A DNA stretch of 64,000 bases from Gammaproteobacteria bacterium (GTDB lineage: Bacteria > Pseudomonadota > Gammaproteobacteria > Eutrophobiales > Eutrophobiaceae), in the NCBI GenBank assembly GCA_041556555.1, contig JBFFIE010000006.1:5452-69451 (forward strand). Reading direction: 5' to 3'. The first letter of the stretch is position 1. The number at the start of each line of letters is the position of its first letter. Positions 13,123 through 49,715 of this stretch are shown piece after piece. The notes beneath the pieces were generated by a model that saw nothing but the letters and a program-made list of their open reading frames with translations, had not been told where the DNA came from and ran no database searches. The position numbers and the translations under genes are program-made.

Positions 13123-13195
13123 GCTATCAGGGACAGTACTGCAAACTTGAAACTCTGTTTCGGGGCGCTATACTTCGCAATCTCACAAAAAACTG

Positions 13196-13272
13196 TGTCC
13201 TTGAGGAGCGTTGCGACGGGCTGACCCCGCCAGGCTCGAGAATACAGCAAGTTTCAAACGGCGCTCGCTTAA
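13196..13272 (+). ncRNA. SAH (S-adenosylhomocysteine) riboswitch in the ahcY leader
   Basis: Three conserved SAH-element blocks appear in order: GAGGAGCGTTGCGAC, GCCAGGCTCG and AACGGCGCTCGC. They sit immediately 5' of a GGAGG Shine-Dalgarno and the ahcY ATG at 13289. The context is the one typical for this riboswitch. Confidence 0.7.
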
Positions 13273-13288
13273 TTTGGAGGAAAACCAG

Positions 13289-14704: not shown

Positions 14705-14719
14705 TGCGGGGCTCAGACA

Positions 14720-15628: not shown

Positions 15629-15681
15629 AGTTGGATTTTATCCGCCGGTATACCGACGGAAATCAAACCGGAGTTGCCAAT

Positions 15682-18446: not shown

Positions 18447-18531
18447 TCGTCAGTTATTTATATAAACTATATAATCTGATAATGTAACGTTGGGGGTGGT
18501 TGTCGAGCGGCTAACGGAGGCAGTTTGTGTG

Positions 18532-20175: not shown

Positions 20176-21842
20176 GTCTCTTAATGGATGCCTTGAAAAA
20201 GGCGGAACGGGAGAAAAAAGAAGCAGCCAAACGTTTAAAGGAGTCGCAGGAAAGGTCCGGTATGGATCTCACCCTGGAAGAAGCGACACCCCGACCTGAA
20301 GCAGAGACAGAGGCAGAAGACAGCACGAAGAGTCAACAGCCGGAAATAACCGCTGATCAGCCAGAACAACAAGAGGAATCTGCCGGTGATCTTTCTCTTT
20401 CACCGATCGAAGACGAGATTGATACCGAGGCACCAACCCAGAAGATTGACCTTTCGAAAATGAAGGACCCCGGTACGTCCGGACTTTCACTTGAAGACAA
20501 AAATGATTTGACTCTTGATCAACCGGATCTGGTGGAGTCGGTTGAGGACGAGGAAACTGACGAGGAAACTGGTCCCGAAGCACCTGTCTTTGCTATCAAT
20601 TCACTTTCAACGGAAGAGGATTATATCTCCCCGCTGGAAGATTCCGGCCTGCATGAATTACCGGAACAAACCCTTGAAGATAGCGGCATCTTTACCCGCT
20701 CACTCGATGAAGGCAAGACTCTGCAGTCAGCACTTTCAGCAGAAGAGCTGGCCAGGGAGATGGGCGATGACCCAAATGCGCCCTTGCCGGTAGCCGCGCA
20801 AACTGTGTTTAATGCCTCTGCCGGTCAAAGCAGCAAGCGACAATTTATGGAATGGTTTTTATTTGTGGCCTGTTTTGCAGTTTTGATCATTGCTGGCAGT
20901 ATTTTTTACTATCTGAAAACAACACCTGAAATCTCGCCTCCGATCCGCCCGCAAATGGCAGAGACCGAGACTGCTACAGTCGAACAGATTATAGAACAGG
21001 CGCAAGTATCTTCAGATGTATCCGGTGAATTTACTAGTACCGAGACAGGACAGGAAATAGTGCTGGATGATTCCGCAGCACAGACAGCCAGTATTGGGAT
21101 ACCTGAAAAACCAGACGCCATAGAGGCTGCTGATAAGGAAACCATTGCCATGCGACAACCTTTGCCAGAGCACAAACAAGGACAGGAAAATATTTTACCG
21201 AACGAAATCAGGGTTGAACCGAGGGTGTTGCAAATAAGTCGCAGCCGTGCTGTCCGCGAGAGTGATTTACTGGTGCATGATGCTTACGCCGACTATAAAG
21301 CCGGAAATTTTGACTCTGCGGCAGCAGCCTACCAGAAAGTACTGATTACCCATCCTGAAAACCGCGATGCACTCCTTGGCCTGGCTGCCATAGCGCAGAA
21401 CAGGGGTAACCAGCAGCAGGCAAGTCAATACTACCTGCGTGTTCTCAAGAATTATCCTTCTGATGTGATTGCCAAGGCTGCTTTGCTTGCATCAACCAAT
21501 AGCAAGGAATCGGCCGCCGAAAATGAAAGCTTGTTAAAATCAATGATCAGCGATTCACCGGACACGGCTGATTTACATTTTATCCTTGGCAACGTATTTG
21601 CCAGTACTTCCCGCTGGAACGATGCGCAACAATCCTTCTTTGAAGCATTCAGGCTGGATAATGAAAATGCAAACTATGCTTATAATCTTGCAGTCAGCCT
21701 GGATCATCTCGGCAAGACGCAGGCTGCCTTGCAATATTACCGTCTGGCAATGGAGTTGGCCGAATCATCTTCAATAACACTGAACACCAACGTCCTTGCC
21801 TCCAGAATTGCTGCGCTCTCTGATTTTTCGCAGGATCAATAA
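20172..21842 (+). CDS. TPR-repeat membrane protein, MshN-like, with a long acidic cytoplasmic N-terminal region
   Basis: GTG start that overlaps the secretin stop (GTGA). The first 220 aa or so are D/E-rich. One TM helix follows, then C-terminal TPR repeats. Confidence 0.6.
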   Translation: MSLLMDALKKAEREKKEAAKRLKESQERSGMDLTLEEATPRPEAETEAEDSTKSQQPEITADQPEQQEESAGDLSLSPIEDEIDTEAPTQKIDLSKMKDPGTSGLSLEDKNDLTLDQPDLVESVEDEETDEETGPEAPVFAINSLSTEEDYISPLEDSGLHELPEQTLEDSGIFTRSLDEGKTLQSALSAEELAREMGDDPNAPLPVAAQTVFNASAGQSSKRQFMEWFLFVACFAVLIIAGSIFYYLKTTPEISPPIRPQMAETETATVEQIIEQAQVSSDVSGEFTSTETGQEIVLDDSAAQTASIGIPEKPDAIEAADKETIAMRQPLPEHKQGQENILPNEIRVEPRVLQISRSRAVRESDLLVHDAYADYKAGNFDSAAAAYQKVLITHPENRDALLGLAAIAQNRGNQQQASQYYLRVLKNYPSDVIAKAALLASTNSKESAAENESLLKSMISDSPDTADLHFILGNVFASTSRWNDAQQSFFEAFRLDNENANYAYNLAVSLDHLGKTQAALQYYRLAMELAESSSITLNTNVLASRIAALSDFSQDQ

Positions 21843-21844
21843 CA

Positions 21845-23560
21845 ATGGCGAAATCAAATAAGAAACATCTACGTCTGGGTGAAATACTGGTACAGCAAGG
21901 TGTTACCACCCCGGATCAGATCGAGATAGCATTAACCGAGCAAAAGAAAAGCAAGGAAAAGCTGGGCAAGATACTGGTGCGCCTCGGCTTTGCAACAGAA
22001 GCCATCATTCGTGATGTTATCGGCGGTGTCATTGGCCAGGAAAGTGTCAACCTTGATTATGCCGTTCCCGACAGCGAGGCTGTGAAACTGATCCCGAAAA
22101 ACCTCGCCAGACGATTGCATGTCCTGCCCCTTACCTACGACAACACAGCAAAGACACTGACGGTAGCCATGACGGATACCTTCAACGTCGTTGTGCTGGA
22201 CCAGATTAGCGTCCAGGTAGGCCGTGAGATTGAACTGGTTCCTGTGCTCGCCGGCGAGGCCGAAATTGAAAAGGCCATCGACCAGTTTTACGGATTTGAA
22301 TTATCGGTTGATGGCATCCTGAATGAAATTGAAACCGGTGAAATCGACTACCAGAGCCTTGATTCGGAAACGGACGAATACAGTCAGCCGGTAGTAAGAT
22401 TGGTTAATGCATTGTTATCTGATGCGGTAAAGCGTGGGGCATCAGATATTCACTTTGAACCGGAAGAAGGATTCCTGCGTTTCCGTTATCGTATTGATGG
22501 CGTACTGCGACAGATACGTAGTATCCACAAGAACTACTGGTCTGCCATTGCAGTCCGCCTGAAAGTGATGTCGGGCATGGATATTGCTGAAACCCGCGCA
22601 CCACAGGATGGTCGAATTTCTCTTTCCCTCTCCGGCCGTATTGTCGATTTTCGCGTGTCAACCTTGCCGACAGTGCACGGTGAAAATATTGTCCTCCGGG
22701 TACTGGACCGGCAAAAAGGCATTGTCGCACTGGACAAATTGGGGCTTAAGGATGATGCACTGAATACTCTGAAGATCATGGTCGGCCGACCGGAAGGCAT
22801 CATCCTCGTCACCGGGCCCACGGGCAGTGGTAAAACCACAACGCTCTATTCCATCCTCAATTACCTGAATGAGGAAAACGTCAACATCATGACCCTGGAA
22901 GACCCGGTAGAATATCCGACCAGCATGATCCGCCAGACTTCGGCTAGCGAAACTTCGCGCCTGGATTTTGCCAGTGGTATCCGTTCCATGATGCGTCAGG
23001 ACCCCGACATTATCCTGGTCGGTGAGATTCGTGATGAGGACACGGCAAGTATGGCCCTGCGCGCCGCCATGACCGGTCACCAGGTGTTTTCCACCCTGCA
23101 CACCAATTCGGCCCTTGGTGCCATTCCCCGATTGCTGGATATCGGTGTCCAGGCCGATATCCTCGCCGGTAATATCATTGGTGTGCTCGCCCAGCGCCTG
23201 GTCAGGAAATTATGTGATGCCTGCAAGGAATCCTACCAGATGAGTGACCTGGAAAGGACACTTCTGAACCTGAAATCCACAGACAGGCAGCAGGATATTT
23301 TCCGGGCCAAGGGCTGCCAGCAGTGTGATGGTCAGGGTTACCGTGGTCGGTTGGCTATACTGGAAATACTGCACTTTGATGCAGATATGGATGAACTCAT
23401 TGCCCGGCGAGGCACCCAGCGAGAACTCATGCGCGCGGCCTTGTCCAAGGGTTTCAAGACACTGGCTGATTCCGGCTCTGACCGGGTCCTGGATGGCTCA
23501 ACATCACTTGAAGAAGTTTCCCGTGTAATTGACCTGACTGGACGTATAACACACAAGTAA
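21845..23560 (+). CDS. GspE/PilB-family type IV pilus assembly ATPase with an N-terminal MshEN (c-di-GMP-binding) motif pair, MshE-like
   Basis: Two tandem 24-aa motifs are present: RLGEILVQQGV...LTEQ and KLGKILVRLGF.... Walker A (GPTGSGKTTT), Asp box, His box and a tetracysteine motif are also present. Confidence 0.85.
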   Translation: MAKSNKKHLRLGEILVQQGVTTPDQIEIALTEQKKSKEKLGKILVRLGFATEAIIRDVIGGVIGQESVNLDYAVPDSEAVKLIPKNLARRLHVLPLTYDNTAKTLTVAMTDTFNVVVLDQISVQVGREIELVPVLAGEAEIEKAIDQFYGFELSVDGILNEIETGEIDYQSLDSETDEYSQPVVRLVNALLSDAVKRGASDIHFEPEEGFLRFRYRIDGVLRQIRSIHKNYWSAIAVRLKVMSGMDIAETRAPQDGRISLSLSGRIVDFRVSTLPTVHGENIVLRVLDRQKGIVALDKLGLKDDALNTLKIMVGRPEGIILVTGPTGSGKTTTLYSILNYLNEENVNIMTLEDPVEYPTSMIRQTSASETSRLDFASGIRSMMRQDPDIILVGEIRDEDTASMALRAAMTGHQVFSTLHTNSALGAIPRLLDIGVQADILAGNIIGVLAQRLVRKLCDACKESYQMSDLERTLLNLKSTDRQQDIFRAKGCQQCDGQGYRGRLAILEILHFDADMDELIARRGTQRELMRAALSKGFKTLADSGSDRVLDGSTSLEEVSRVIDLTGRITHK

Positions 23561-23563
23561 CAA

Positions 23564-24769
23564 ATGGAAGCATTTCAATATAAAGCAGTTGATGATCGGG
23601 GCCGGATAACCGTCGGCAAGATCGACGCCGTCAATATTGCAGATCTGGAGACGCGCCTCGACAGGATGGGTCTTGACCTGGTCAATTATAAAGACCTTGG
23701 GCCGACTGGACCAAAAATTACCGGCGTTGGTGTTTCGCGTCGTGACCTCATCACATTTTGTTTCCATCTTGAGCAAACCGGTCGTGCCGGCGTGCCGATT
23801 CTGGAGAGCCTCGAAGACCTGCGTGACAGTAGTGATAACCCCAGGCTGCGCGAAGTCATTGCAGCGATGATTGATTCCATCGAGGGTGGGCAAACACTAT
23901 CCCAGGCAATGCGTAATTACCCTGCGGTCTTCGACAGCATATTTTGCAACCTGGTCAGAGCGGGTGAACAGTCGGGTGAAATTGCCCAGGTATTCTATCA
24001 GCTGGGCGAGAACCTGAAATGGCAGGACGAGCAAGCAGCCCAGACCAAGAAACTCCTCATCTATCCGGCATTCGTCGGTACAGTTGTCATAGCCGTTGTT
24101 TTCTTCCTGATGGTCTACCTGGTGCCGGAATTGCTCCGCTTTGTAAAAACCATGGGCCAAGAGCTGCCCATGCACACCAAGATTCTGATCGTGGTTTCCA
24201 ATGCCTTTGTCCAGTACTGGTATCTGTTTGTCCTGATCCCGGTACTGGTGGTTGGCGGATTGATGATTGCGATAAGGGTGAACGAAACTGCAAGGTACCA
24301 ATATGATGCCTTCAAACTAAAAATACCGATTATTGGCCCGATACTTCGCAAAATCATCCTGACTCGCTTGACCAGCTTTTTTGCCATGATGTATGCATCT
24401 GGCATTACCATCATCGAGTGCATTCGTACCGGTGAACAGATAGTAGGTAACAAGGTAATTGAGCAGGCAATGCACCAGGTTGGTCAGCACATTGCCGACG
24501 GCGCAACGCTGAGTACCAGCTTTGAAAGAACAGAACTGTTTCCACCACTGGTGTTAAGAATGATACGTGTTGGCGAGAATACCGGAGCCCTTGAGGAATC
24601 ATTGATCAATATCAGCTACTTTTACACCCGCGATATCAAGGAATCGATTGAAAAATTGCAATCCATGATTGAGCCTACGATGACGGTTGTCCTTGGTGCA
24701 ATTATTGGCTGGGTCATGTTATCTGTCCTTGGACCTATTTATGATCTCATCACTAAAGTCAAAATTTGA
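23564..24769 (+). CDS. GspF/PilC-family inner-membrane platform protein, MshG-like
   Basis: 401 aa. Two GspF repeats and three TM segments are present. Confidence 0.85.
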   Translation: MEAFQYKAVDDRGRITVGKIDAVNIADLETRLDRMGLDLVNYKDLGPTGPKITGVGVSRRDLITFCFHLEQTGRAGVPILESLEDLRDSSDNPRLREVIAAMIDSIEGGQTLSQAMRNYPAVFDSIFCNLVRAGEQSGEIAQVFYQLGENLKWQDEQAAQTKKLLIYPAFVGTVVIAVVFFLMVYLVPELLRFVKTMGQELPMHTKILIVVSNAFVQYWYLFVLIPVLVVGGLMIAIRVNETARYQYDAFKLKIPIIGPILRKIILTRLTSFFAMMYASGITIIECIRTGEQIVGNKVIEQAMHQVGQHIADGATLSTSFERTELFPPLVLRMIRVGENTGALEESLINISYFYTRDIKESIEKLQSMIEPTMTVVLGAIIGWVMLSVLGPIYDLITKVKI

Positions 24770-26351
24770 TACGGGCGACCGCAGGGCAATCCTGCTCAGT
24801 TCAACCAAGCTTTTTGTTTACCTCTGGACAGACGGCAAGCTTGGTCGGACCTATATGTTTGACGTAACCGATCAGGGCCGGGCATTTTTTGACAATTACA
24901 TTAAGGAATCCGAGCTTCTGGAAACCTATTTCGTGGTTGATATTGTCGAGGAGGAATATCGCCAAGAAACGATACCTCATGTATTTGGTGGCGATCGCCG
25001 GGCGGTCATAAAGCGCAAAAAGGAGCGACTGTTTCGAGACACACCCTATTTTCATGCTGAGATACAGGGTCGGGTTGAAGAGGGCAGACGGGATGACCGG
25101 GTCCTGTTTACAGCATTAACCAACCAGGACATTATCCAGCCCTGGATTGATATTCTTCTGGAAAACAAGGTTCCGCTTGCCGGGATTTATTCCATTCCGC
25201 AGATTACCTCGTTATTACTCGACAAGCTGCCCGAGCCCTCGGAACACATGCTGATAGTCAGCATGCACAGCATTACAGGCCTCAGGCAGACATTTTTTCA
25301 CAAAAAGGAACTTAAAATCAGCCGACTGGTTGATCTGCCGCGCTACGGGACATCGCCCTATGCACCGATCATCCGCGAGGAGGTTGATGTCATTACCCGG
25401 TATCTTAACAGCTTGCGCCTCATTGACAGCGAGAAGCCATACGAGGTTTATTTTCTGGCTGACAACAAACTGCTGAGCGAGATCAAAAGCGAGTTGGATG
25501 AGTCTGCTTCGGTTAACTATCACTTTGTAAATCTGAATACCTTTGGCAGAGAGTGCGGACTTGAAATTGAAACAGCCAATCCGTTCAGTGAAAAACTGTT
25601 TATTTATCATCTGCTGAAAGAGAGGCCCGGTAATTACTACGCCCAGAAAAACGAAACGCATTATTATCGTATGTCACGCATCAGGGGCGCGATGTATGTC
25701 ACCAGCGTCTGCATGGTTCTCGCCAGCCTAATCTGGGGCAGTATTAATTTCACAATAGGTCTGAGTTACAGAAAACAGGCAGAATTGTCCCAGAAACAAT
25801 ACCAGTATTACAGTGAGCGGCTGAAAGAGGCACGCAAAGAGCTTGCTCCGAGTCCGGTCAGCCCCTATGACCTTAAAACACTGGTGGAAATGGCAGACAC
25901 ACTGAAAAAATACAAGACAGACCCTGCCGATATCTTCCAGGTCATCAGTCGTGGGCTGGCCCGGTTTCCACAGATTGAACTGACCAATATCACCTGGAAT
26001 TCATCCAGTAAACCTGCAAGCCAGGAAAACACCGTTGCCACCGGAGATCTCGGACGTGGTTTGGCAGGTTATAGCACGCTTGAAGTTAATAGCTCGGATT
26101 ACAAGTATTTCCAGAATATTTATCTCGATGGTTATCTAGCGTCCTTCGATGGCAACTATCGCAAGGGCATAGCCACGATAAACAATTTTGTTGAATCACT
26201 AAGAGGCATTGATGCGGTTGAGGATGTAGCTGTGATCAAGCTGCCATTAGACACCGGCTCAGATAATCCCCTGAGCGGTGATACCAATAATGAATCTCTG
26301 GAAGCTAATTTTTCAGTCAGGCTGGTAATGGGAGTCATGCCAAATGGATAG
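24741..26351 (+). CDS. PilM/PilN-type fusion assembly protein (MshI-like). Cytoplasmic actin-like N-domain, one TM helix, periplasmic coiled-coil domain
   Basis: ATG at 24741 overlaps the platform gene by 29 nt. About 330 aa are cytoplasmic. A TM helix (MYVTSVCMVLASLIWGSINF) is followed by a PilN-like periplasmic part. Confidence 0.5.
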   Translation: MISSLKSKFDTGDRRAILLSSTKLFVYLWTDGKLGRTYMFDVTDQGRAFFDNYIKESELLETYFVVDIVEEEYRQETIPHVFGGDRRAVIKRKKERLFRDTPYFHAEIQGRVEEGRRDDRVLFTALTNQDIIQPWIDILLENKVPLAGIYSIPQITSLLLDKLPEPSEHMLIVSMHSITGLRQTFFHKKELKISRLVDLPRYGTSPYAPIIREEVDVITRYLNSLRLIDSEKPYEVYFLADNKLLSEIKSELDESASVNYHFVNLNTFGRECGLEIETANPFSEKLFIYHLLKERPGNYYAQKNETHYYRMSRIRGAMYVTSVCMVLASLIWGSINFTIGLSYRKQAELSQKQYQYYSERLKEARKELAPSPVSPYDLKTLVEMADTLKKYKTDPADIFQVISRGLARFPQIELTNITWNSSSKPASQENTVATGDLGRGLAGYSTLEVNSSDYKYFQNIYLDGYLASFDGNYRKGIATINNFVESLRGIDAVEDVAVIKLPLDTGSDNPLSGDTNNESLEANFSVRLVMGVMPNG

Positions 26352-26961
26352 GGGCATGGATGTTTCGGTTCTCAAGGGCGCAGCTATTGTGTTTCTCATT
26401 AGTCTTTTGTTCAGTGGCGGCCTCGTCTGGAGCGGGTGGTATTTCAAGGATGAAATGCTGAATGCCTACAACAGGGCGAAAGCCCAACAAAAAAGTGTTG
26501 CAAGCAGCTATGTTTCCATTGATGAGGAGAAAAGACTGGTCAGGGAATATCTGCCAGTATTCAAGAATCTCCATACGTTTGGTGTATTTGGTCAGGAACA
26601 TAGACTTAATTGGCTGGAAACACTGCGCAGTACGGGTGAAAAGCTGAAACTCCCGGCATTGCGCTACGAAATTGATTCACAAGATATCTATGTTCCTGAT
26701 TACACGGTCAATAGTGGAACCTTCAAAATATACGCCAGCCCGATGATATTGAATGTTGAACTGGTTCACGAAATTGATTTACTTGATCTGCTGGATAACC
26801 TTGATCGGAAGGCACAGGGGATTTATAACCTTAAATCATGTGAACTGATCCGGTCTCCAAAGGATGTTTCCCGGGAAAAATTAGATTCATATGTAAATGC
26901 AGATTGCAAGCTGATGTGGTTTAACATCAAGAAATCTGACGGTAGAACGATAGATATCTAG
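26344..26961 (+). CDS. PilO-like (MshJ-like) bitopic inner-membrane protein
   Basis: 205 aa with an N-terminal TM helix, then a coiled coil, then a periplasmic domain. It overlaps the previous gene by 8 nt (ATGGATAG). Confidence 0.45.
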   Translation: MDRGMDVSVLKGAAIVFLISLLFSGGLVWSGWYFKDEMLNAYNRAKAQQKSVASSYVSIDEEKRLVREYLPVFKNLHTFGVFGQEHRLNWLETLRSTGEKLKLPALRYEIDSQDIYVPDYTVNSGTFKIYASPMILNVELVHEIDLLDLLDNLDRKAQGIYNLKSCELIRSPKDVSREKLDSYVNADCKLMWFNIKKSDGRTIDI

Positions 26962-26964
26962 ATA

Positions 26965-27438
26965 ATGAAAAAAGGCAAACACATCATTATATTCCTGGCA
27001 GGTAGCCTTTTTGTTACCCTGCTTCCGGCCAGAGATTTGTCTTCTCAGGATAACATCGGTCGCCTGTTCATGACACCGGAAGAGAGGAGAACGCTGGATC
27101 TATTACGGAATCAGGAAGATCGCTCGACTATTACCGTTCCAAGTCTTGCCATTGAAGATGATCCTGATGAGGTATTGGATGAACAAATAACCGGTATAAC
27201 GGTTGACGGAATTGTTTACAGGAAAAACGGCAAGAGCACAGCCTGGGTCAATGATGGAAATACCTACGAAGGAGACCTTTCTACCCAGTATCTTGACATC
27301 AACCCGGAGCATATCAGCCCCGGTGGCGTAAAGATAAAAGTCAAGAATAACGATAAATCCAGATTAATCAGGATGGAAACCGGGCAAACCTATGATCCTG
27401 TAAAAGATGAAGTTGTTGACCCGGTAAAGTACAAATAA
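26965..27438 (+). CDS. PilP-like (MshK-like) periplasmic protein with a signal peptide
   Basis: 157 aa with a signal peptide. Its position and size match the PilP/MshK slot. Confidence 0.4.
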   Translation: MKKGKHIIIFLAGSLFVTLLPARDLSSQDNIGRLFMTPEERRTLDLLRNQEDRSTITVPSLAIEDDPDEVLDEQITGITVDGIVYRKNGKSTAWVNDGNTYEGDLSTQYLDINPEHISPGGVKIKVKNNDKSRLIRMETGQTYDPVKDEVVDPVKYK

Positions 27439-27483
27439 CTCCCTCCCGCTTAATCACACCTGAATATTGTGGGATAGTTCAAT

Positions 27484-29178
27484 ATGAAAAAACCTGTGCC
27501 ACAAAAACAAAAGGGTGCCGTATTACTTGCTACTACACTTATCTTGATACTGGGCTCTGCCTGGTTATTGATTATCAACCTTAACAACAATGCCAGGCGT
27601 TTTGCGAATTACGAGGAGAGTATGCAAGTACTCAGAGAGGCAAAACAGGCCCTGATTGCCTATGCGGTTAACTATTACGAATCCAATCCTGGCCATTTCG
27701 GTTTTTTACCTTGCCCGGATTCAAGTACCACTGGTGAGGAGGGTAACCAGGAAGCCCCCTGTGGGGCACGATATGTCAATGTCATGGGTAAGTTTCCCTG
27801 GCAAGCGCTGGATCTTCCCCCACTGAAGGATGCTTATGGTCAATGCCTGTGGTATGCCGTCTCCGGTGCGGTCAAGGGAGGTAGTAGCCGCTCTGAAATG
27901 TTGAATGAAGATACCCATGGCACATTCCAGATTATGGATCCGGATGGCGTCACAGTGGTTGCCGGGGCCACACCCAGGGAAAGGCCGGTGGCCGTTATTT
28001 TCGCCCCGGGACGTTCCATTAATAACCAGACACGGGCCGATAGCAACGGCGCTATCTGTGAAGGGAATGAAGCGGTGAATTATGTGGCGAGTAATTATCT
28101 TGATGCCGAGGTACCGTCAAACCCCCTGTTGGGTATCAGGAATTATGTCGTAAGTTCCACAGCGGATACGGTAGACCAGTTCATAATGACAGGCGATCCG
28201 GAGAGTGAGGATTTCAATGATCTGATGCTTTACATCACGATTGATGAGATCTTTGATGCCATCAAGCAGCGTAACGATTTTGCAGATAAGCTTTACGACG
28301 AGGCCGCCTTGAATAATCTTACCTATCGGGTAGCAGAATGTATTGCCGGCTATGGCCAGTACCATGCCGATAAACACGTTGACGATGGTGATGGGGATTA
28401 CAATCGCAGCCTGCCTTGGCCTGCGCGTTTCGATTTTGCGGATGATGACAACCGTTACCGGTATGAAGCAGAATATTATGATATTGATAATAGTTCACTG
28501 CTCATGGGGAGAGTCCCCATAGATATCAGCAACAGCAACGATGAGATATATAATGGCTGCAGTTCACCGCATACCTGTTTACCCCCGTCTGACAGACTCA
28601 TAGACACCAGTACGTCGCCATATTCGGGGTTTTGCAGGGCGTTCTGGCTGGTGTATTCGGATAACCCGATTAGTCCATCTGCCACAAATGAGTTGATTGA
28701 CTTATGGAATAACTGGAAAGACCATTTATTCTATATTGTGTCGGAGGAATATCAGCCACAGCCCATGAGCGCAGATACAGATGCCTGCCTCGACACTACT
28801 CAATCACCGGATGAAATCGAACCTAGATGTATTACAATAAATGTGCCGTTCACTTATCCGCCGAATGACCAGTCGTTGAATATGACAATGGTGGCTGCAA
28901 TAGTTATTTTCTCTAATGAGACATTACCATCGTTATCACAGTCAAGATCGGCACCACCGATCGATACCGATGACAAGCAGAATCCTGCCTCGAATCTGGA
29001 AGACCGGAATATCATCCCCTATACGACTTCTGATGTAGGGATAGATACAGAGTTTTCCAGTAATCAAGTCAGTGCTACTTTTAATGATGTTCTTTATTGC
29101 ATCAATGAAGATACGGATGAAACGTCGATTGGCGGACCACCGCCGTTCAAGGCGGGCAGATGCCCGGTGAATCCATAA
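27484..29178 (+). CDS. Large PilX_N-type pilus-associated protein (pseudopilin-like N-terminal helix without the canonical G-F-T-L-I-E)
   Basis: The N-terminus QKGAVLLATTLILILGSAWLL resembles the PilX N-domain. It shares an LPCPD...C...G-x-F/L-PW-x-x-L-x-x-P block with the downstream pilin. The large C-terminal region is acidic. Confidence 0.5.
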   Translation: MKKPVPQKQKGAVLLATTLILILGSAWLLIINLNNNARRFANYEESMQVLREAKQALIAYAVNYYESNPGHFGFLPCPDSSTTGEEGNQEAPCGARYVNVMGKFPWQALDLPPLKDAYGQCLWYAVSGAVKGGSSRSEMLNEDTHGTFQIMDPDGVTVVAGATPRERPVAVIFAPGRSINNQTRADSNGAICEGNEAVNYVASNYLDAEVPSNPLLGIRNYVVSSTADTVDQFIMTGDPESEDFNDLMLYITIDEIFDAIKQRNDFADKLYDEAALNNLTYRVAECIAGYGQYHADKHVDDGDGDYNRSLPWPARFDFADDDNRYRYEAEYYDIDNSSLLMGRVPIDISNSNDEIYNGCSSPHTCLPPSDRLIDTSTSPYSGFCRAFWLVYSDNPISPSATNELIDLWNNWKDHLFYIVSEEYQPQPMSADTDACLDTTQSPDEIEPRCITINVPFTYPPNDQSLNMTMVAAIVIFSNETLPSLSQSRSAPPIDTDDKQNPASNLEDRNIIPYTTSDVGIDTEFSSNQVSATFNDVLYCINEDTDETSIGGPPPFKAGRCPVNP

Positions 29179-29181
29179 GCC

Positions 29182-29946
29182 ATGAACCAAAAAAACAAAA
29201 GCCTTGCTAGCCACGGTTTCACCCTGATAGAACTCGCTATCGTGTTGTTCATTGTCAGCCTGTTACTGGGCGGCTTGCTCATGCCCTATGCGACCAGTGT
29301 CGAACAACGGGAGCGTGAGGACACAGCCGAGATCCTGGAGGACATCAAGGAAGCTCTGTATGGACACGCATTGGTTAACGGTTACCTGCCTTGCCCGGAT
29401 TGCGAGACAGGCCAGGCCTGTGCAGCCGGTACACCGGATGACGGGATAGAAGACAGAAATGGCAACCTGTGTTCAGTAACGCTTTCTGCTCAAAATACCT
29501 ACACAGGGAATCTGCCCTGGGCCACGCTCGGCGTTCCCCAGTTTGATGCCTGGGAAAAACCATTTACCTACAGCGTGACCGATACTTTTTCAAATGACGC
29601 GGTTCCTTTTACCCTGACGGATACCGGGACGATAGACATACTCGACCAGGACGGCGCCGCCACGGCCCGGATAGCGCAGAGCATCCCCGCTATCGTAGTT
29701 TCCCACGGCAAGGATCATTATGTGCCCGCGCAAAGCGCAGACCAGGTAGAAAACTACGAGCGCGATGCGAACATATATGGCACAACCAATAGTATCCTCA
29801 CAGCATATTCAGGTGATAATGCCGGTGAATTTGTCTTTACCGATTACAGGCTCTTGGGGGGTAATATTGATTACGACGATATGATGATCTGGATTTCCCC
29901 GTTTGTCATCAAAAACCGGATGATTGCCGCAGGTCAACTGCCCTGA
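29182..29946 (+). CDS. Type IV (prepilin-type) minor pilin, Cys-rich
   Basis: The prepilin cleavage/methylation motif reads HG|FTLIELAIVLFIV. Five Cys residues fall within about 40 aa (LPCPDCETGQACAAG...NLC). It is the last gene of the operon. Confidence 0.75.
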   Translation: MNQKNKSLASHGFTLIELAIVLFIVSLLLGGLLMPYATSVEQREREDTAEILEDIKEALYGHALVNGYLPCPDCETGQACAAGTPDDGIEDRNGNLCSVTLSAQNTYTGNLPWATLGVPQFDAWEKPFTYSVTDTFSNDAVPFTLTDTGTIDILDQDGAATARIAQSIPAIVVSHGKDHYVPAQSADQVENYERDANIYGTTNSILTAYSGDNAGEFVFTDYRLLGGNIDYDDMMIWISPFVIKNRMIAAGQLP

Positions 29947-31610
29947 TTCAGAGACCGTGACTTCTCCAGCCTGAAGCATACCTTGCCATCCGAATTATGT
30001 TTCAGTTTCAACTCATAACCCAGTGTCCCGGCCTGCTTGGCTGCCTGTAACAGGCCAATACCCAGACCATTGTCTGATTTAACCGGTTCCTGAAAAAGCC
30101 TTTCGACGAGTTCTTTGGGTATGGCCTGGCCGTTATCCTCTACTTCAATAGAAATTCCTTCATCGTTTCCCTGCAGGGTAACGGTAATATCGATTTCCGG
30201 ATCCAGCTTGCGTTTGTTTATAGCATTTTCAACGAGGTTTTCACTGACACTATCAAATAAATCAAAAGGGATACGAAGGTCACTGTTGATATCATCTTTG
30301 AACTGAATATCAAACGACCTGTAATGATTCATGAACTCATTCCACCAGTCTCTGAGATAGATTTCGTCCGCGATCAGTTGCTCGGGTGATTGTAACTTGT
30401 TGACTGCTTGTTCCAGGCGCTGTATGAAATAAGGAAACTGCTTTTTCAGTATCAACAATGACCTGGCATCTCTTTCGTCTGTATCAGCTTGCAAAATTGT
30501 TACCATGGAGTGCATGGACTGCAAGAGGTTCTTGATGTCATGAGTAATCCTGGCACCGGTCTCAAATATGGCCTGAAGATGTGCCTGCTTGGCAAGTTCA
30601 ATCTCGTTCAACTTGGCCTGATAGAAATATTCAATCAGCCGGATTAATAATTTGCAATGTATCAGCACGGCCCCGCCTACTCGTATATGCGTGTAAATCT
30701 CAATGGGCTTATTACTAATATCCAGGCTAATCCTGTGGCTGGATTTTTTCCCCTTTAGCTGGTTATTCCAGTATGTACCGGATATCCAGTCCAGTGTAAG
30801 CAGCTTTTCTATGGCCACATCCAGGTATTCCTCAGCAGAATCATGTTGATCCTTGAGCGCGGAAAGTTCATCCAGCCAGGTTTCAAACGGGGTTCCGATA
30901 CTGAGCAGTGATTTGGTCCAGATCTGGGAAAATCCACTGAGCCCGATATTTGCAGAAAGCAACCAGCTGATAAAAAGCAGGAATAGGCCAATTGCCAGGA
31001 GAATCCGGATCAGCGCTGTGACGTAATCGGTGCCAGCAGAATACATGATGACAAGACTGCCGAGCGCAATCAAACTCACCAGTAATGAAGTAGTGATAGC
31101 ATATATGATGTCAACTGGAACCGGTGATCGTTTTGCAGGTTTGAATAACGGCATTAAAACCGGGACCAGTAGCAAGAGGTAGTTCAGTGATGATATGCCC
31201 TTGGGCAGGGTGGCAATCGTGAACATCATGGGCAGGCAGATAAGAAGTATCTCAGAGAACAGAAATACCATGACGATATAGTAAACAAAACGCTCAGCAC
31301 GGCTGTTGACAACGCGTCCTCCAACGATGCCCAGTATCAGTACCAGCCAGACAAAGACAAGCCACCAGTTGATAAAATAGACAAACAGGAAACTCAGCAG
31401 AATAAGTAACAGACTGTTATACCAGCTATAACGTTCTTCAGTCCTTTCTATGGGTTGCCAGAGGAGAAAAAAACCCAGGTGAATGAGAAACAGCGCCCGT
31501 GAGAGCAGACTGCCGAAATCAATCCAGATCGCAAGATGCAGACTTGCCAGCATTGCTGCCAATAACAGGTAATCGCGACGATCACTGACGAATCTGAAGA
31601 GACTGGTCAT
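29934..31610 (-). CDS. Multi-TM sensor histidine kinase, PilS-like (about 8 predicted TM helices + DHp + HATPase_c)
   Basis: The N-terminal 250 aa or so are polytopic. The H-box reads ARITHDIKNLL, followed by N and G boxes (NGLGIGL). It is convergent with the pilus operon and overlaps it by 13 nt. Confidence 0.75.
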   Translation of the reverse strand: MTSLFRFVSDRRDYLLLAAMLASLHLAIWIDFGSLLSRALFLIHLGFFLLWQPIERTEERYSWYNSLLLILLSFLFVYFINWWLVFVWLVLILGIVGGRVVNSRAERFVYYIVMVFLFSEILLICLPMMFTIATLPKGISSLNYLLLLVPVLMPLFKPAKRSPVPVDIIYAITTSLLVSLIALGSLVIMYSAGTDYVTALIRILLAIGLFLLFISWLLSANIGLSGFSQIWTKSLLSIGTPFETWLDELSALKDQHDSAEEYLDVAIEKLLTLDWISGTYWNNQLKGKKSSHRISLDISNKPIEIYTHIRVGGAVLIHCKLLIRLIEYFYQAKLNEIELAKQAHLQAIFETGARITHDIKNLLQSMHSMVTILQADTDERDARSLLILKKQFPYFIQRLEQAVNKLQSPEQLIADEIYLRDWWNEFMNHYRSFDIQFKDDINSDLRIPFDLFDSVSENLVENAINKRKLDPEIDITVTLQGNDEGISIEVEDNGQAIPKELVERLFQEPVKSDNGLGIGLLQAAKQAGTLGYELKLKHNSDGKVCFRLEKSRSLNQGS

Positions 31611-31667: not shown

Positions 31668-32453
31668 TTGTCGGGATCACTAATGAAATATCCTGTCGGG
31701 GCCATTGCCCGTTATAGTTTGCTGGAAGCAGTAAGAAGTCATATTTTCCTGCTCGTGGTACCGGGCGTGATAATTCTTTTCGGCATCTCGCAATTCGTTG
31801 GTGAACTGGCCGTCACTGAATCCAGGGAAATTCAGGCTGCTATAACCGCTTATATAATTCGAGTTCTTGCCGTAATTATTACATGCCTCTTTATTGTTTT
31901 ATCCTGTTTGCGGGAATTTAATGAAAAGACAGTCGATATAATTTTTGCATTACCGGTTCCACGATATGTTTATTACCTGGGCAAGCTGTTCGGTTTCTCA
32001 GGCCTTGTTTTTATAGTAGCCGTGTTATTTTCGTTACCACTTTTTCTTTATGCAGATATGATGCCAGTAGCTTACTGGTCAATATCGCTGGTCTGCGAGT
32101 TATTTATTATGACGAGCCTCAGCCTGCTGTTTTTACTGACTCTTGGAAATGCCACATTGACCCTGAGCCTGGTCTTTGCGTTCTATGTTTTGTCACGAAC
32201 CATAAATACAATCCAGTTAATAGCAGCCAGCCCTGTTATTGAAGCAACATCTTTTTCGCAACATTTAATAAGCGGTATCATTGATGTGATCGCCTTTCTA
32301 TTGCCGGATTTTTCCCGCTTTGCCCAAACGGAATGGTTAATGACAGGTTCAGTCGATATCAACGAAATAAGTTTTGTATTTTTGCAGACGACGGTCTATG
32401 TGGTGTTATTATCAGCCGCAGCACTGTTTGACCTCTATCGAAAGGAATTCTAG
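31668..32453 (+). CDS. ABC-2 family transporter permease
   Basis: 261 aa with about 6 TM helices. The hydrophobicity profile is ABC-2 type. Confidence 0.6.
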   Translation: MSGSLMKYPVGAIARYSLLEAVRSHIFLLVVPGVIILFGISQFVGELAVTESREIQAAITAYIIRVLAVIITCLFIVLSCLREFNEKTVDIIFALPVPRYVYYLGKLFGFSGLVFIVAVLFSLPLFLYADMMPVAYWSISLVCELFIMTSLSLLFLLTLGNATLTLSLVFAFYVLSRTINTIQLIAASPVIEATSFSQHLISGIIDVIAFLLPDFSRFAQTEWLMTGSVDINEISFVFLQTTVYVVLLSAAALFDLYRKEF

Positions 32454-33196
32454 TGTTTCATAGATTCAGTCGCTCGGGTTTATTTACCCATTCTACCCAA
32501 CGGCCCGTTTCCAGCGTTCCCGGGACAGTGTCACTGGTCTTGTTGCTTGCCCTGGGTCTGCAGTTCGTCTTGCATGGTTATTATGTTGAGAGGGATGTGG
32601 TCGGTAAATCGCTTACGCTGGCACCATCCGAACACCATGCCAGCATGCTGGGCCTGGGGGACAATATCGCGATCGCCAAGATACTGATGCTTTGGTTGCA
32701 GGCCTTTGATAATCAACCGGGCCTGAGCATACCGCTTGCTAGACTTGACTACGGGAGGGTAACAGGCTGGCTGCAACTGATACTTGATCTGGATCCACGG
32801 GGTCAATACCCGTTATTTGCAGCGGCACGCATCTATGCCGGGATTCAGGACGAGGACAAACAACGCCAGATGCTTGGATTTGTCTACCGGAATTTTTTCA
32901 AGGATCCAAACCATCGATGGCCGGCCCTGGCGCACGCCGTGTACATAGCCAAACACCGCCTGAATGATATGCCATTAGCCTTAAAATATGCCGAGGCAAT
33001 GGCAGATAATGTAACCGCAAAAGATGTACCCTTCTGGGTCAAGCAGATGCACATTTATGTGCTCGAAGATATGGGTGAACTGGAAGCGGCAAGGATTCTG
33101 CTGGGCGGGCTCATCGAGAGTGGTACCATCAGGGATCCAAATGAGCTCGAGTTCCTGCGTTCACGGCTCAGGAATCTGGAGGAAAAGACTGAATAG
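32453..33196 (+). CDS. Hypothetical membrane-anchored protein (the PilG-slot gene in a pilGHI-like arrangement)
   Basis: GTG start that overlaps the permease stop (TAGTG). One N-terminal TM helix is present. I recognise no domain. Confidence 0.4.
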   Translation: MFHRFSRSGLFTHSTQRPVSSVPGTVSLVLLLALGLQFVLHGYYVERDVVGKSLTLAPSEHHASMLGLGDNIAIAKILMLWLQAFDNQPGLSIPLARLDYGRVTGWLQLILDLDPRGQYPLFAAARIYAGIQDEDKQRQMLGFVYRNFFKDPNHRWPALAHAVYIAKHRLNDMPLALKYAEAMADNVTAKDVPFWVKQMHIYVLEDMGELEAARILLGGLIESGTIRDPNELEFLRSRLRNLEEKTE

Positions 33197-33331
33197 GAGC
33201 GGGAATCGGGACCTGGCGATGTTCAATAAAAGTGTCGAGATTTCGACAAACTGATGACAGCTCGTCAGTTTTTCCCGTGTTCACCCAGATATTAAATTAT
33301 AAAAGTTAATAATTACAGATAGTTAGTGGTT

Positions 33332-33346
33332 TGGCATGGAAAATGC
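33332..33346 (+). promoter_or_regulatory. Sigma-54 (-24/-12) promoter of the major pilin gene
   Basis: The sequence is TGGCATGGAAAATGC. The GG and GC elements are at the consensus spacing (TGGCAC-N5-TTGC). It lies 38 nt upstream of the pilin ATG. Confidence 0.65.
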
Positions 33347-33383
33347 GAGATGACTGGCAGAGAAAACGCTGAGGTGTATTGAG

Positions 33384-34097
33384 ATGACGACAATGAAAAG
33401 ACAATCCGGTTTTACCCTGGTCGAAATTGCCATCGTACTGGTTATCGTTGGCCTGTTGCTCGGAGGCATACTGAAAGGCCAGGAATTGATCAACAGTGCC
33501 CGAGTCCGCAACCTGGCGGATCAGAACGCCGCGGTTCAGGCAGCCTATTATGGTTTCATCGACCGCTATCGGCAGATTCCCGGAGATTGGCCGGCAGCTG
33601 CGGCGACCACCGGTATCGGGGTGACTATCGTCAGCCCGACTTCAGCCAATGCCGGTAATGGTCGTATCGATGACGGTGACTGGGACGAAGCCTCCGGAGT
33701 CTGGGAACAGCTGGCCGGCGCCGGTTTTATCGCGGGTAACTACAGTGGTGGCGGTACTGCCGCGAACTACACTGACGGTACCCGTGCGCCAGTGAATGCA
33801 TTTAATGGTTCGGTATTACTTGGTCGCATGGACCAGTACCAGGACAATGGCACCGCCGTTGAGCGCCTGGCCTTTTCCTTCGGCAACCAGATCCCGGCTA
33901 AGATCCTGCGTGAGCTGGATGTGAAGCTGGATGATGGTCGGCCACTGACCGGTATTCTAAGGGCCTCGGGGACGGCCACCGGTGGTTGGGCCACCATGTT
34001 TACCTCTGTTGCTGCCTGTACTGCCGGTACGGCCCCGAATATAGAATGGGACGTGGCCACGGACTCACAGGATTGTGGCGCAGTCTCGCTCTATTAA
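33384..34097 (+). CDS. Type IVa major pilin candidate (prepilin with a C-terminal disulfide loop)
   Basis: The leader MTTMKRQSG|FTLVEIAIVLVIVGLL has the class III signal with Glu at +5. A C-terminal Cys pair (C...19 aa...C) forms the D-region. Its own sigma-54 promoter lies upstream and an intrinsic terminator downstream. Confidence 0.8.
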   Translation: MTTMKRQSGFTLVEIAIVLVIVGLLLGGILKGQELINSARVRNLADQNAAVQAAYYGFIDRYRQIPGDWPAAAATTGIGVTIVSPTSANAGNGRIDDGDWDEASGVWEQLAGAGFIAGNYSGGGTAANYTDGTRAPVNAFNGSVLLGRMDQYQDNGTAVERLAFSFGNQIPAKILRELDVKLDDGRPLTGILRASGTATGGWATMFTSVAACTAGTAPNIEWDVATDSQDCGAVSLY

Positions 34098-34124
34098 TCC
34101 TGTTTGATAAGCAAACATTAAAAA

Positions 34125-34150
34125 GGCCCGCACTAACGCGGGCTTTTTTC
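34125..34150 (+). terminator. Rho-independent terminator after the pilin gene
   Basis: GGCCCGC-actaa-GCGGGCC stem-loop followed by TTTTTT. Confidence 0.7.
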
Positions 34151-34176
34151 TTCAAAGTTGCTGAAAGATAGAATCG

Positions 34177-34896
34177 ATGACTATTCCTGTAGTTGAAATC
34201 AATGCTGTGTCCAAGTCCTATGGGCGTAAACAGGTCCTTTCAGATATCAGTCTTTCTATCTCTGAGGGTGAATACATTGGTCTCGTGGGTCTGAACGGTG
34301 CCGGCAAAACAACCCTGATTAAATGTCTGCTGGATTTCTGTGCCCTGGACAGTGGCCAAATCCGTATCTTCGGTCGTGAACATCGGGATACTGAATCCAG
34401 GAAATCGCTGGTTTTTTTGCCGGAGAAGTTTATTCCACCCTATTTCCTGAAGGGTAATGATTTTCTCAAATACATGGCAGCACTTTATCAAATTAATGTC
34501 GATAACGAATTAATTGATTCATTGTTACAAGTGATGGATCTGGATGCAGAGTCACTGGACCAGCCGGTCTACAAATATTCGAAAGGTATGTCACAGAAAC
34601 TGGGTTTAATAGCCAGCCTCATGACCGGGAGGCAGTTACTGGTTTACGACGAACCCATGAGTGGTCTGGATCCCAGAGCCAGGGCGCGTTTAAAAAAGCA
34701 TTTGCTATCACTCAAGTCTGCCGGGCAAACCCTGTTTTATTCTTCCCATTTGCTCGAAGACGTTAAAGCCATGTGCGATCGTCTTGTCATTCTGCATCGC
34801 GGTCAGGTCCGTTTTTTTGGCACACTGGATGAATGTATAAAATCATTTGTTGCAAACGATCTGGAAGAGGCCTACTTACATTGCATCGATCAGTGA
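34177..34896 (+). CDS. ABC transporter ATP-binding protein (ABC-2 / CcmA-like)
   Basis: Walker A (GLNGAGKTT), ABC signature (YSKGMSQKL) and Walker B (LLVYDEP) are present. Confidence 0.85.
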   Translation: MTIPVVEINAVSKSYGRKQVLSDISLSISEGEYIGLVGLNGAGKTTLIKCLLDFCALDSGQIRIFGREHRDTESRKSLVFLPEKFIPPYFLKGNDFLKYMAALYQINVDNELIDSLLQVMDLDAESLDQPVYKYSKGMSQKLGLIASLMTGRQLLVYDEPMSGLDPRARARLKKHLLSLKSAGQTLFYSSHLLEDVKAMCDRLVILHRGQVRFFGTLDECIKSFVANDLEEAYLHCIDQ

Positions 34897-49169: not shown

Positions 49170-49715
49170 TTGAAATGGCCGGTGGCACTATTGTTGCTGT
49201 TGCTGTGTCATGCGCAGGCTGCACAGGCAGGTGAAATTCAGCAGGTATCCGTCACCCGGCAGGGACCAATCTACAGCATCAACTTCCTGGTGTTAATTGA
49301 GCGGGAATTATCGCAAGTAAGGTCACGGCTGCTTGAACATCAGCGCTTCCACGAACTCAGTGACATGGTTCTTGTGAGTAAACATCTGAGGGAAAATCAG
49401 ACGAATCTGCGGCAACTGGAAGTCAGGGCCTGCCTGATTTTCTTCTGCCCGGAGTTTGTGGTGCGTGAACGCATTGATCCCGGCCCGGACGGGTTTACCG
49501 CAACCGTGATCCCGGATCACAGTGACTTCTACAGCGGGGTGAGCCACTGGCTGCTGACATCAGACAGGCCTGGCCAGACTACACTGACGTTCAACAGCAT
49601 TCTCGAACCCAAGTTCTGGATCCCGCCCCTGATCGGTCCCTGGTACCTGGAAAAACGACTGACACGGGAACTTGGAATACTGATAGAGCGAGTAGAAACG
49701 GATGACCAACGATAA
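49170..49715 (+). CDS. Hypothetical secreted protein (possible SRPBCC/START-like fold)
   Basis: A signal peptide (MKWPVALLLLLLCHAQAAQA) is present. I see no clear motif. The gene is coupled to asmA (TGATTGAAATG). Confidence 0.4.
   Translation: MKWPVALLLLLLCHAQAAQAGEIQQVSVTRQGPIYSINFLVLIERELSQVRSRLLEHQRFHELSDMVLVSKHLRENQTNLRQLEVRACLIFFCPEFVVRERIDPGPDGFTATVIPDHSDFYSGVSHWLLTSDRPGQTTLTFNSILEPKFWIPPLIGPWYLEKRLTRELGILIERVETDDQR

Follow-up and report, generated by a model that had tools for sequence, protein, structure and literature searches.

A predicted sigma-54-dependent transcription unit for a stand-alone pilin gene in an MSHA-like type IV filament locus

In type IVa pili, it is textbook knowledge that a two-component system and sigma-54 can govern a major pilin gene with its own transcript, and nothing reported here overturns this. 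Such control, by sigma-54 and PilR, is established in Pseudomonas and other bacteria (PMC6058289, PMC7170775). A second described module concerns the targets of the regulator PrsR, which have a PEP-CTERM box ending in ...ACA, sometimes repeated, then a spacer of ~63 nt and a sigma-54 motif, in front of a single-gene operon (Haft et al. 2006, PMC1569441). Here, we describe a prepilin gene, at positions 33384-34097 of a 64,000 nt stretch of contig JBFFIE010000006.1 (hereafter, the window), that can be compared with both. The source is an uncultured gammaproteobacterium, represented by a metagenome-assembled genome (MAG). We consider it probable, from computational evidence for the whole circuit, that this pilin gene is a single-gene unit. 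It would comprise a sigma-54 promoter (33332-33346), two upstream dyads bound by a regulator that is paired with a sensor kinase, both encoded in the same locus, and an intrinsic terminator (34126-34149). The coordinates of all features are collected in Table 1.

A predicted sigma-54 promoter and a terminator flank the pilin gene in sequence

The 187-nt intergenic region before the pilin gene contains a predicted -24/-12 element, TGGCATGGAAAATGC, directed towards the gene. An initial annotation of this DNA had placed a sigma-54 promoter here, and the position and spacing that it gave are correct. The GG and GC dinucleotides occupy positions 33333-33334 and 33345-33346, in the canonical GG-N10-GC arrangement, with 38 nt between the end of the GC element and the ATG at 33384. 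Conversely, the fit to TGGCAC-N5-TTGC, which had been called exact, is not. The element deviates twice, having T in place of C at position 6 and A in place of T at position 12, and so matches 13 of 15 consensus positions. Sites were scored by our own weighting of the published consensus (Barrios et al. 1999), where the maximum is 14. Within the window, TGGCATGGAAAATGC is the sole hit scoring 12.5 or more that is both intergenic and upstream of a co-oriented gene. This score is reached by ~1.1% of random 140-nt windows. The same scan found no comparable element in front of the operon for assembly, the gene for the kinase, or the genes on either side. Similarly, a sigma-70 scan of the intergenic region before the pilin gene found no sigma-70-like promoter.

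Note that two exact matches to TGGCAC-N5-TTGC do occur in the window, at 3114-3128 (reverse strand) and 49183-49197 (forward strand), and that both are inside coding sequence. In the case of the second, this is the signal peptide MKWPVALLLLLL, encoded in part by the match, of an open reading frame at 49170-49715. These two sites provide an internal control, illustrating that consensus matches arise by chance.

Relatives of the pilin were collected from species-representative genomes; of the 600 pattern matches listed, at least 566 were confirmed. The comparison set comprises 80 loci, taken from Gamma- and Betaproteobacteria and almost exclusively from MAGs. Cultured relatives with the locus include Methylohalomonas lacus, and Thiobacillus is among the genera represented in the related loci. 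These loci are phylogenetically related, and their intergenic DNA is otherwise unalignable. Together, they contain 89 pilin copies with enough upstream DNA to be counted. An element scoring at least 11.5 is present within 140 nt of the Gly -1 codon in 58 of the 89 copies (65%), compared with 7.4% of random windows. Raising the threshold to 12 gives 58% of copies, and 2.8% of random windows, for the same 140 nt of upstream DNA. In nearly all scoring copies, the GC element is 51-79 nt before the Gly -1 codon. A matrix derived from the relatives' promoters reads TGGCAYG-N4-TTGCW.

We also scored the minor prepilin genes of the same loci, including the one at 29182 in the window. These reach just 7.75-10 and, therefore, the sigma-54 signal is specific to the stand-alone pilin gene. 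We attach significance to the predicted promoter because it is the only high-scoring hit that is intergenic and co-oriented, because such scores are found in about 1% of random windows, and because the element is conserved in relatives. In five of the compared loci (L003, L035, L041, L044 and L065), the pilin gene is duplicated or triplicated in tandem. In L041, a strong sigma-54 element is found at the first copy alone.

At the other end of the gene, the initial annotation had noted a strong hairpin with a run of six T residues. Both are present; the stem encloses the loop ACTAAC (GCCCGC-ACTAAC-GCGGGC). The surrounding 66-nt region folds at -22.3 kcal/mol (z = -4.6). Since the hairpin is flanked by A and T runs, the terminator could work in both directions. 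Such signals are a regular feature of this family. A terminator, consisting of a GC-rich hairpin with a T-run, is found within 150 nt of the stop codon of 36 out of 48 homologous pilin genes (75%), mostly 17-35 nt after it, and in 2.2% of random windows. We conclude that the single-gene arrangement of promoter, pilin and terminator is a conserved design. The Rfam model Trp_leader also matched at 34068-34151. This match, at 33.2 bits, is below the gathering threshold of 41 and was judged an artefact of a shared hairpin and T-run.

The pilin gene had been described as separate from the assembly operon. As a transcription unit, this description holds. In the genome it does not; the gene is 3.4 kb from the end of the operon, inside the same conserved locus.

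Paired dyads upstream of the predicted promoter

The initial annotation suggested a search for an enhancer with dyad symmetry 80-150 bp upstream. Two dyad sites were found, centred at about -118 and -98 relative to the predicted transcription start. The distal site, TGTCGAGATTTCGACA, is a perfect dyad of the TGT-N10-ACA type, has no second perfect match in the 64 kb, and is the top-scoring hit in the window for the position weight matrix (PWM) described below (score 21.6). The proximal site, TGATGACAGCTCGTCA, is degenerate and is the second-best hit (score 16.2).

The motif was defined using the relatives. Exact enumeration of 5-mer dyads gave small counts only, and pointed to TGT-N10-ACA; a PWM with cross-validation was then used. 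TGT-N10-ACA itself is present in 19 of 52 upstream regions, compared with 3% of random windows. For the PWM, cross-validation was two-fold, with training on half of the loci and testing on the other half. The window was kept out of training, and matrices obtained in this way recover site 1. The consensus among relatives is TGTCGA-N4-TCGACA, where the half-site is TGTCGA in gammaproteobacterial loci and has the variants CGTCGA and TGCCGA in betaproteobacterial ones. For the two held-out halves, the loci with a dyad site numbered 23 out of 25 and 25 out of 26 (48/51 overall), against a background of 5-7%. Tandem dyads, 19-21 bp apart, were detected in 18 of 25 and 19 of 26 (37/51), against a background of 1.7%. 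Perfect copies of the dyad in the 80 loci number three, every one of them upstream of a pilin gene.

The position of the dyads is also informative. The modal centres in gammaproteobacterial relatives are at about -118 and -98, and the sites in the window match these. In many betaproteobacterial loci the dyads are further upstream. When the upstream regions of twelve loci are aligned, they agree only at the dyads, a block with the sequence AATCAATNAGTTA, the -24/-12 element and the ribosome-binding site. Note that a dyad between genes could, in principle, be the terminator of an upstream gene. We read these dyads as sites for protein binding instead, because half-site sequence and phasing are conserved, rather than mere pairing. 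The dyads are, thus, predicted to be activator-binding enhancer sites, as sigma-54 promoters call for upstream.

The AATCAATNAGTTA block is just upstream of the -24 element and fits the IHF consensus. At the same offset, the window has the AT-rich and degenerate sequence TTACAGATAGTTA, a weak copy with three core mismatches that may be a site for DNA bending between enhancer and promoter. Among relatives, the exact IHF consensus, WATCAANNNNTTR, is found in 7 of 53 upstream regions, compared with 0.46% of random windows, and CAR-N4-TTR is found at offset -16 in 10 loci.

The pilin, its locus and the candidate regulators

The N-terminus of the encoded protein reads MTTMKRQSG/FTLVEIAIVLVIVGLLLGG, where the slash marks the cleavage site. 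This is the prepilin leader that the initial annotation reported, with Gly -1, Phe +1 and Glu +5. It is a class III signal peptide by its match to the Pfam model N_methyl (31.6 bits; cutoff 21.2), and it also matches TIGR02532 (23.3 bits; cutoff 16.3). The C-terminal cysteine pair noted at the same time, Cys212 and Cys231, is present with a separation of 19 residues, and is invariant in 33 aligned homologues. The protein ends ...CGAVSLY and is without a PEP-CTERM tail. In public annotations, near-identical copies start at either the ATG at 33384 (237 aa) or the ATG at 33393 (234 aa). We favour the former because of the position of the ribosome-binding site. The mature pilin, of ~228 aa, is identical whichever ATG is used.

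The pilin belongs to a large family, with more than 120 clusters at 50% identity or more to the protein in the window. All that annotation offers for the family is 'prepilin-type N-terminal cleavage/methylation domain-containing protein'. The family is uncharacterised, being without name, function or literature. Structure prediction had been recommended, and AlphaFold2, supplied with the family alignment, gave a model with a pLDDT of 91.9. In the model, an N-terminal helix of ~50 residues (12-62) is followed by strands, and the head is mixed alpha/beta. With its long helix, beta-sheet head and C-terminal cysteine region, the predicted structure has the type IV pilin fold. A Foldseek search of the PDB returned one meaningful match, TcpA (8uhf_D; E 1.8e-3, TM 0.53 on the target, 16% identity), and GspG was a far weaker match than TcpA. 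Sequence comparisons reach less far. The family profile matched solved pilins in the PDB over the N-terminal helix alone, as did the comparison with MshA (E 0.011), and the models scoring highest against the N-terminal region are GspH and GspG. The pilin therefore mixes a short leader and Phe +1, as in type IVa pilins, with the size and head of type IVb pilins, in the setting of an MSH-like machine.

Most likely, an MSHA-like type IV filament has this pilin as its major subunit. We favour this role because there are just two prepilin genes in the window, and because this one has a promoter and terminator to itself, is found as tandem paralogues elsewhere, and has marginally the highest codon adaptation. 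Note that this last value (0.687) is the maximum for the locus by a small margin, and that the differences are too slight to serve as a proxy for expression.

The assembly operon encodes, in order, an MshM/ExeA-like ATPase, an MshL secretin, a TPR protein, an MshE ATPase, a GspF/MshG platform protein, four unannotated proteins and a minor prepilin of 254 aa. The secretin matches TIGR02519 (264.3; cutoff 250) and the platform protein is of the GspF/T2SSF type. The MshE ATPase (21845-23560) matches the MshEN model NF053729 (60.1 bits; cutoff 38), and has the Pfam MshEN (PF05157) and T2SSE domains. Judged by this motif, assembly is probably gated by cyclic di-GMP (c-di-GMP). The MshM-like ATPase matches AAA_22; a model for ATPases of PEP-CTERM loci gave 209, below its cutoff of 324.5. 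Of the mandatory genes of the MSH class in the model of Denise et al. 2019, mshE, mshG and mshL are all in one locus. For the other two, mshM and mshA, there are the partial likenesses of the MshM-like ATPase and of the pilin, the latter in the N-terminal helix alone. A search of the window for prepilin peptidase motifs found none, and loci of the MSH class are typically without this enzyme (PMC6668835). One of the four unannotated products of the operon, a 564-aa protein (27484-29178), begins ...QKQKG/AVLLATTLILILG and resembles non-canonical minor pilins of the GspK/PilX type, which are without Glu5. Profile searches found no family match for it.

The order minor pilin, kinase, permease, p247 and pilin is kept in most of the 80 loci, with the ABC ATPase next in the gammaproteobacterial ones. 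The pilin is, thus, an integral member of a conserved locus of ~19 kb. In this conserved synteny, it sits between the parts of a split transporter, namely the ABC-2-like permease and the ABC ATPase. The family of p247, directly upstream of the pilin, has ~4000 members, all of which are called 'hypothetical', and has no Pfam domain. An AlphaFold2 model of p247 (pLDDT 86) has a TPR-like helical repeat, for which there are only generic TPR matches, including PilW and LapB. At the other end of the locus, metK, ahcY and metF (11953-15628) are upstream of, and co-oriented with, the regulator gene and the operon. The same arrangement is found in L085, and metF alone in L086.

Table 1. Features of the pilin unit and of the surrounding locus, in window coordinates
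Feature	Position	Strand	Description
Sigma-54 -24/-12 element TGGCATGGAAAATGC	33332-33346	+	Score 12.75/14; predicted transcription start near 33358
Distal enhancer (upstream activator sequence, UAS), site 1, TGTCGAGATTTCGACA	33233-33248	.	Predicted; perfect 6+6 dyad, TGT-N10-ACA type; ~-118 from predicted start
Proximal enhancer (UAS), site 2, TGATGACAGCTCGTCA	33252-33267	.	Predicted; degenerate dyad; ~-98; 19 bp centre to centre from site 1
IHF-like element TTACAGATAGTTA	33313-33325	+	AT-rich, degenerate, weak; possible DNA-bending site between enhancer and promoter
Shine-Dalgarno-like GAGGTG	33370-33375	+	8 nt before ATG; read from sequence
Prepilin gene	33384-34097	+	237 aa; 9-aa leader; G/FTLVE; Glu +5; Cys212-Cys231; presumed major subunit
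Intrinsic terminator	34120-34149	+	A-tract, stem GCCCGC/GCGGGC (34126-34143), then T6 (34144-34149)
Sigma-54-dependent response regulator	15682-17124	+	REC, AAA+ (GAFTGA), Fis-type HTH; first gene of assembly operon; presumed activator
MSHA-like assembly operon	17124-29946	+	Profile matches; gene order given in text
Sensor histidine kinase	29934-31610	-	558 aa; H-box ITHDIKNLL; HATPase_c; presumed sensor
ABC-2-like permease	31683-32453	+	Weak ABC2_membrane matches; synteny
p247, membrane-anchored TPR-like protein	32453-33196	+	Translationally coupled to permease; directly upstream of pilin
ABC transporter ATPase	34177-34896	+	Starts 27 nt after pilin terminator; syntenic in gammaproteobacterial relatives

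The initial annotation proposed that a sigma-54-dependent response regulator, opening the assembly operon some 17 kb upstream, controls the pilin together with a kinase. The regulator is present, 17.7 kb upstream, with a probable TTG start at 15682. By its GAFTGA and Walker motifs, it is the only sigma-54 activator encoded in the window. Its best curated model is PrsR (TIGR02915, 355.7 bits; cutoff 502.6), followed by NtrC (340). Flanks around the related pilin loci covered ±6 kb, and the regulator gene lies beyond them. Co-occurrence of regulator and pilin was consequently assessed from shared contigs and from two operon look-ups (L085 and L086). Regulator homologues do share contigs with pilin homologues, and in both of the genomes looked up the operon likewise begins with the regulator. 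In the 53-nt gap between the metF stop codon and the TTG start of the regulator is an imperfect palindrome, CCGCCGGTATACCGACGG (15643-15660), with a score of 12.0 against the enhancer matrix. A role in autoregulation, or as an attenuator, is possible. Four of the compared loci (L020, L028, L030 and L067) have a different sigma-54 activator gene, encoding a protein 33-35% identical to the regulator in the window. It follows the pilin gene immediately, in the opposite orientation, and would represent another wiring of a similar scheme.

The kinase had been called PilS-like, and placed about 1.7 kb upstream of the pilin. Its distance, 1.77 kb, and general architecture bear this out. Its best match does not. 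Among NCBIfam models, PrsK scores highest (45.8 bits; cutoff 300), over the C-terminal part only, followed by AtoS (40.4). Hydropathy indicates ~7-8 transmembrane segments within the first 220 residues. A domain search detected HATPase_c alone, and no PAS or HisKA domain. Position and orientation of the kinase gene are kept in most of the related loci. On domain content, best model matches and gene arrangement (the kinase and regulator genes are 13 kb apart), we rejected orthology with PilS/PilR. Similarly, we rejected membership of PrsK/PrsR, given the scores relative to cutoffs (355.7 against 502.6, and 45.8 against 300) and the type of target. Most simply, the kinase and regulator would be a cognate pair that acts on the only sigma-54 promoter of the locus, because an orphan kinase and an orphan regulator are conserved together in one locus.

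The PilS/PilR-style circuit for pilin supply that the initial annotation proposed is supported, as far as sequence analysis goes, by the conserved -24/-12 element, dyads and terminator, and by minor prepilin genes and an operon that are without such a signal. The circuit would work like PilS/PilR without being orthologous to it. Sequence and its comparison show the signature of the pilin, the promoter with its enhancer sites, the terminator, how far these are conserved, and what the locus is composed of. From these we infer the assignment of the regulator to its sites, its pairing with the kinase, the existence of a signal and the status of the pilin as major subunit.

How such a circuit might operate can be outlined. 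Sigma-54 holoenzyme cannot open a promoter alone, and a promoter of this type is silent without an activator. Transcription of the pilin gene would, therefore, depend on an enhancer-binding protein. Briefly, the membrane kinase would sense a signal and phosphorylate the regulator, which would assemble at both dyads along one face of the helix. The AT-rich DNA would bend, possibly with the help of IHF, so that looping brings the activator to the sigma-54 holoenzyme at the promoter. ATP hydrolysis would open the promoter, and a transcript of ~790 nt would run from about 33358 to the terminator. Since the genes for the machine would be transcribed from other promoters, pilin supply could be switched separately by the signal. 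Assembly, in turn, would probably be licensed by c-di-GMP at MshE (PMC4624765, PMC4624772). This would create two controls, one of subunit supply and one of polymerisation. If the circuit is as proposed, the multi-transmembrane region of the kinase might read the pool of pilin in the membrane, as PilS does, although this is speculation by analogy.

Alternative explanations and comparison with known systems

Several points weigh against the circuit as we propose it. The organism is an uncultured one, known from its MAG, and rpoN was not found in the 64-kb window. Distances of 16 kb to the promoter and 13 kb to the kinase gene separate the regulator gene from its presumed partners, which makes the pairing circumstantial, and the PrsR and PrsK assignments are below cutoffs and narrowly ahead of NtrC and AtoS. 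The promoter and enhancers could, accordingly, be real and yet be bound by a different enhancer-binding protein encoded elsewhere, such as a true PilR or another member of the NtrC family, with the regulator and kinase of the locus controlling something else. The link between regulator and dyads is ours to draw, and 64 kb of the genome are in view. Furthermore, the four relatives in which another activator gene adjoins the pilin mean that an alternative activator is possible. We nevertheless think this unlikely. The regulator is the sole activator encoded in the window, and is conserved at the head of the operon and on contigs that encode the pilin. An orphan kinase and an orphan regulator are most simply explained as a pair, PrsK and PrsR are the best models for the two, and the layout upstream of the pilin is that of a PrsR target.

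Other doubts concern the pilin itself and the promoter. Assignment of the pilin as major subunit is drawn wholly from context. The protein might be a pseudopilin of a secretion-type machine, or an accessory subunit, in which case regulation would tune secretion or adhesion and not the bulk pilin. The best matches of the N-terminal region, to GspH and GspG models, lean this way, as do the few minor pilins seen in the locus, where no retraction ATPase was seen. Against this, the mature protein is ~228 aa in length, with an invariant C-terminal cysteine pair and a predicted fold like that of TcpA, to which GspG is far less similar. In addition, the machine is composed of MshL, MshE, MshG and an MshM-like ATPase, and a strong dedicated promoter and terminator, together with tandem paralogues, fit a bulk subunit. 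A pseudopilin or accessory role is, in our view, less likely still than an activator encoded elsewhere. Lastly, the -24/-12 match might be due to chance, with pilin transcripts that start at a sigma-70-type promoter we did not recognise, or that read through from the ABC-2 and p247 genes, and with the dyads serving as terminator hairpins. Sequences within two mismatches of TGGCAC-N5-TTGC are about as common in the window as expected (87 matches, compared with 73.8 +/- 9.1), and the exact ones are inside coding sequence. A motif match alone is therefore not above chance, and we have dropped it as stand-alone evidence. Furthermore, about one third of homologous pilin copies are without a high-scoring element, some of these being minor-pilin paralogues or genes with mis-set starts, and the hairpin of site 2 is followed by a T5 run, so it could act as a weak terminator for the upstream genes. 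However, the position of the element is conserved across loci with otherwise unalignable intergenic DNA, the half-site sequence of the dyads is conserved, and the dyads keep a fixed phasing, of 19-21 bp, and a fixed distance from the promoter. No T-run follows site 1, and the intergenic region has no sigma-70-like site. We regard a chance match as very improbable, and a dedicated sigma-54 unit for the pilin, controlled from within the locus, as the better account.

If so, wiring of the pilin to sigma-54 would make the surface filament, and hence attachment and aggregation, subject to an on/off decision. It would also provide a regulatory map, consisting of two activator sites, a promoter and a terminator, for a large pilin family in hundreds of uncultured, and a few cultured, proteobacteria. 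Furthermore, regulators that act on PEP-CTERM floc proteins and regulators that act on pili may be linked in evolution. A broader proposal, which we offer tentatively and rate as doubtful, is that the locus represents a type IV filament class that is widespread but has no name, among Gamma- and Betaproteobacteria of the sulfur cycle and of other environments. Such a class would combine a c-di-GMP-gated, MSHA-like machine with a new family of ~230-aa, TcpA-headed pilins, a module of ABC-2, TPR-like and ABC ATPase proteins, and a dedicated sister lineage of PrsK/PrsR. On this broader proposal, one sigma-54 module would have been reused in evolution for two kinds of surface or matrix protein, namely PEP-CTERM proteins and pilins.

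Of the systems described, PilS/PilR-pilA is the closest in logic. In Pseudomonas aeruginosa, and also in Myxococcus, Geobacter, Dichelobacter and Xanthomonas (PilRX/RpoN2), the shared features are a membrane kinase with an NtrC-family regulator, a sigma-54 promoter, and transcription of the pilin separately from the genes for assembly. The sites that the activator binds are of the NifA-like TGT...ACA/AGA type (PMC6058289, PMC7170775). Conversely, the locus has neither the PilS architecture (six transmembrane segments, PAS, HisKA and HATPase) nor an adjacent pilS-pilR pair next to pilA. The machine is MSHA-like and not type IVa, the pilin is from a different and much larger family, and the enhancer is a clean tandem of TGTCGA-N4-TCGACA.

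PrsK/PrsR is the closest in layout. The end of site 2, at 33267, is separated from TGGCA, at 33332, by a 64-nt spacer, and the unit is monocistronic with a terminator. Further similarities are that the nearest curated models for both regulators are PrsK and PrsR, that the upstream region is long, and that a TPR protein is encoded in the locus. Differences are that the target is a prepilin, and not a PEP-CTERM protein, and that the motif has TCGACA in place of TTTACA. No match to an exosortase (EpsH/XrtA) was found among the annotated genes of the window.

The machine is most similar to that of the MSHA pilus of Vibrio cholerae, which defines the comparison for the MSH class (Denise et al. 2019, PMC6668835). 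Both have MshL, MshE with MshEN, MshG, an MshM-like ATPase and an MshN-like TPR protein, the loci are without a prepilin peptidase, and the pilin gene can stand alone. Unlike the MSHA locus, the one described here has a different gene order, with a regulator at the head of the operon, and ABC-2, TPR-like and ABC ATPase genes flanking the pilin. The pilin is like MshA in the N-terminal helix alone. Literature searches found no report of sigma-54 control of mshA or MSHA pilins, nor of this system.

For the pilin, as modelled, the likeness is to TcpA, the type IVb pilin of the toxin-co-regulated pilus, in the large globular head and the C-terminal region bounded by a disulfide, which is predicted for the pilin. 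It differs from TcpA in having a 9-aa leader and Phe +1, as in type IVa pilins, and the machine is not type IVb. For the enhancer, the nearest likeness is to the UAS of NifA. These sites, TGT-N10-ACA, are ~100-120 bp upstream of the sigma-54 promoter, possibly with an IHF site between. The outer bases of the dyad, and their spacing, are the same here. In contrast, the inner part of the half-site, TGTCGA, is different and conserved, the sites are in tandem 19-20 bp apart, and the activator would be a response regulator rather than a GAF-domain protein such as NifA.

What is new, compared with these systems, is the combination. The machine is of the MSH-like class, the lineage of the regulators is nearest to PrsK/PrsR, and the regulator and kinase genes are placed apart. 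Added to this are the clean tandem TGTCGA-N4-TCGACA enhancer, an uncharacterised pilin family, and the ABC-2, TPR-like and ABC ATPase genes around the pilin.

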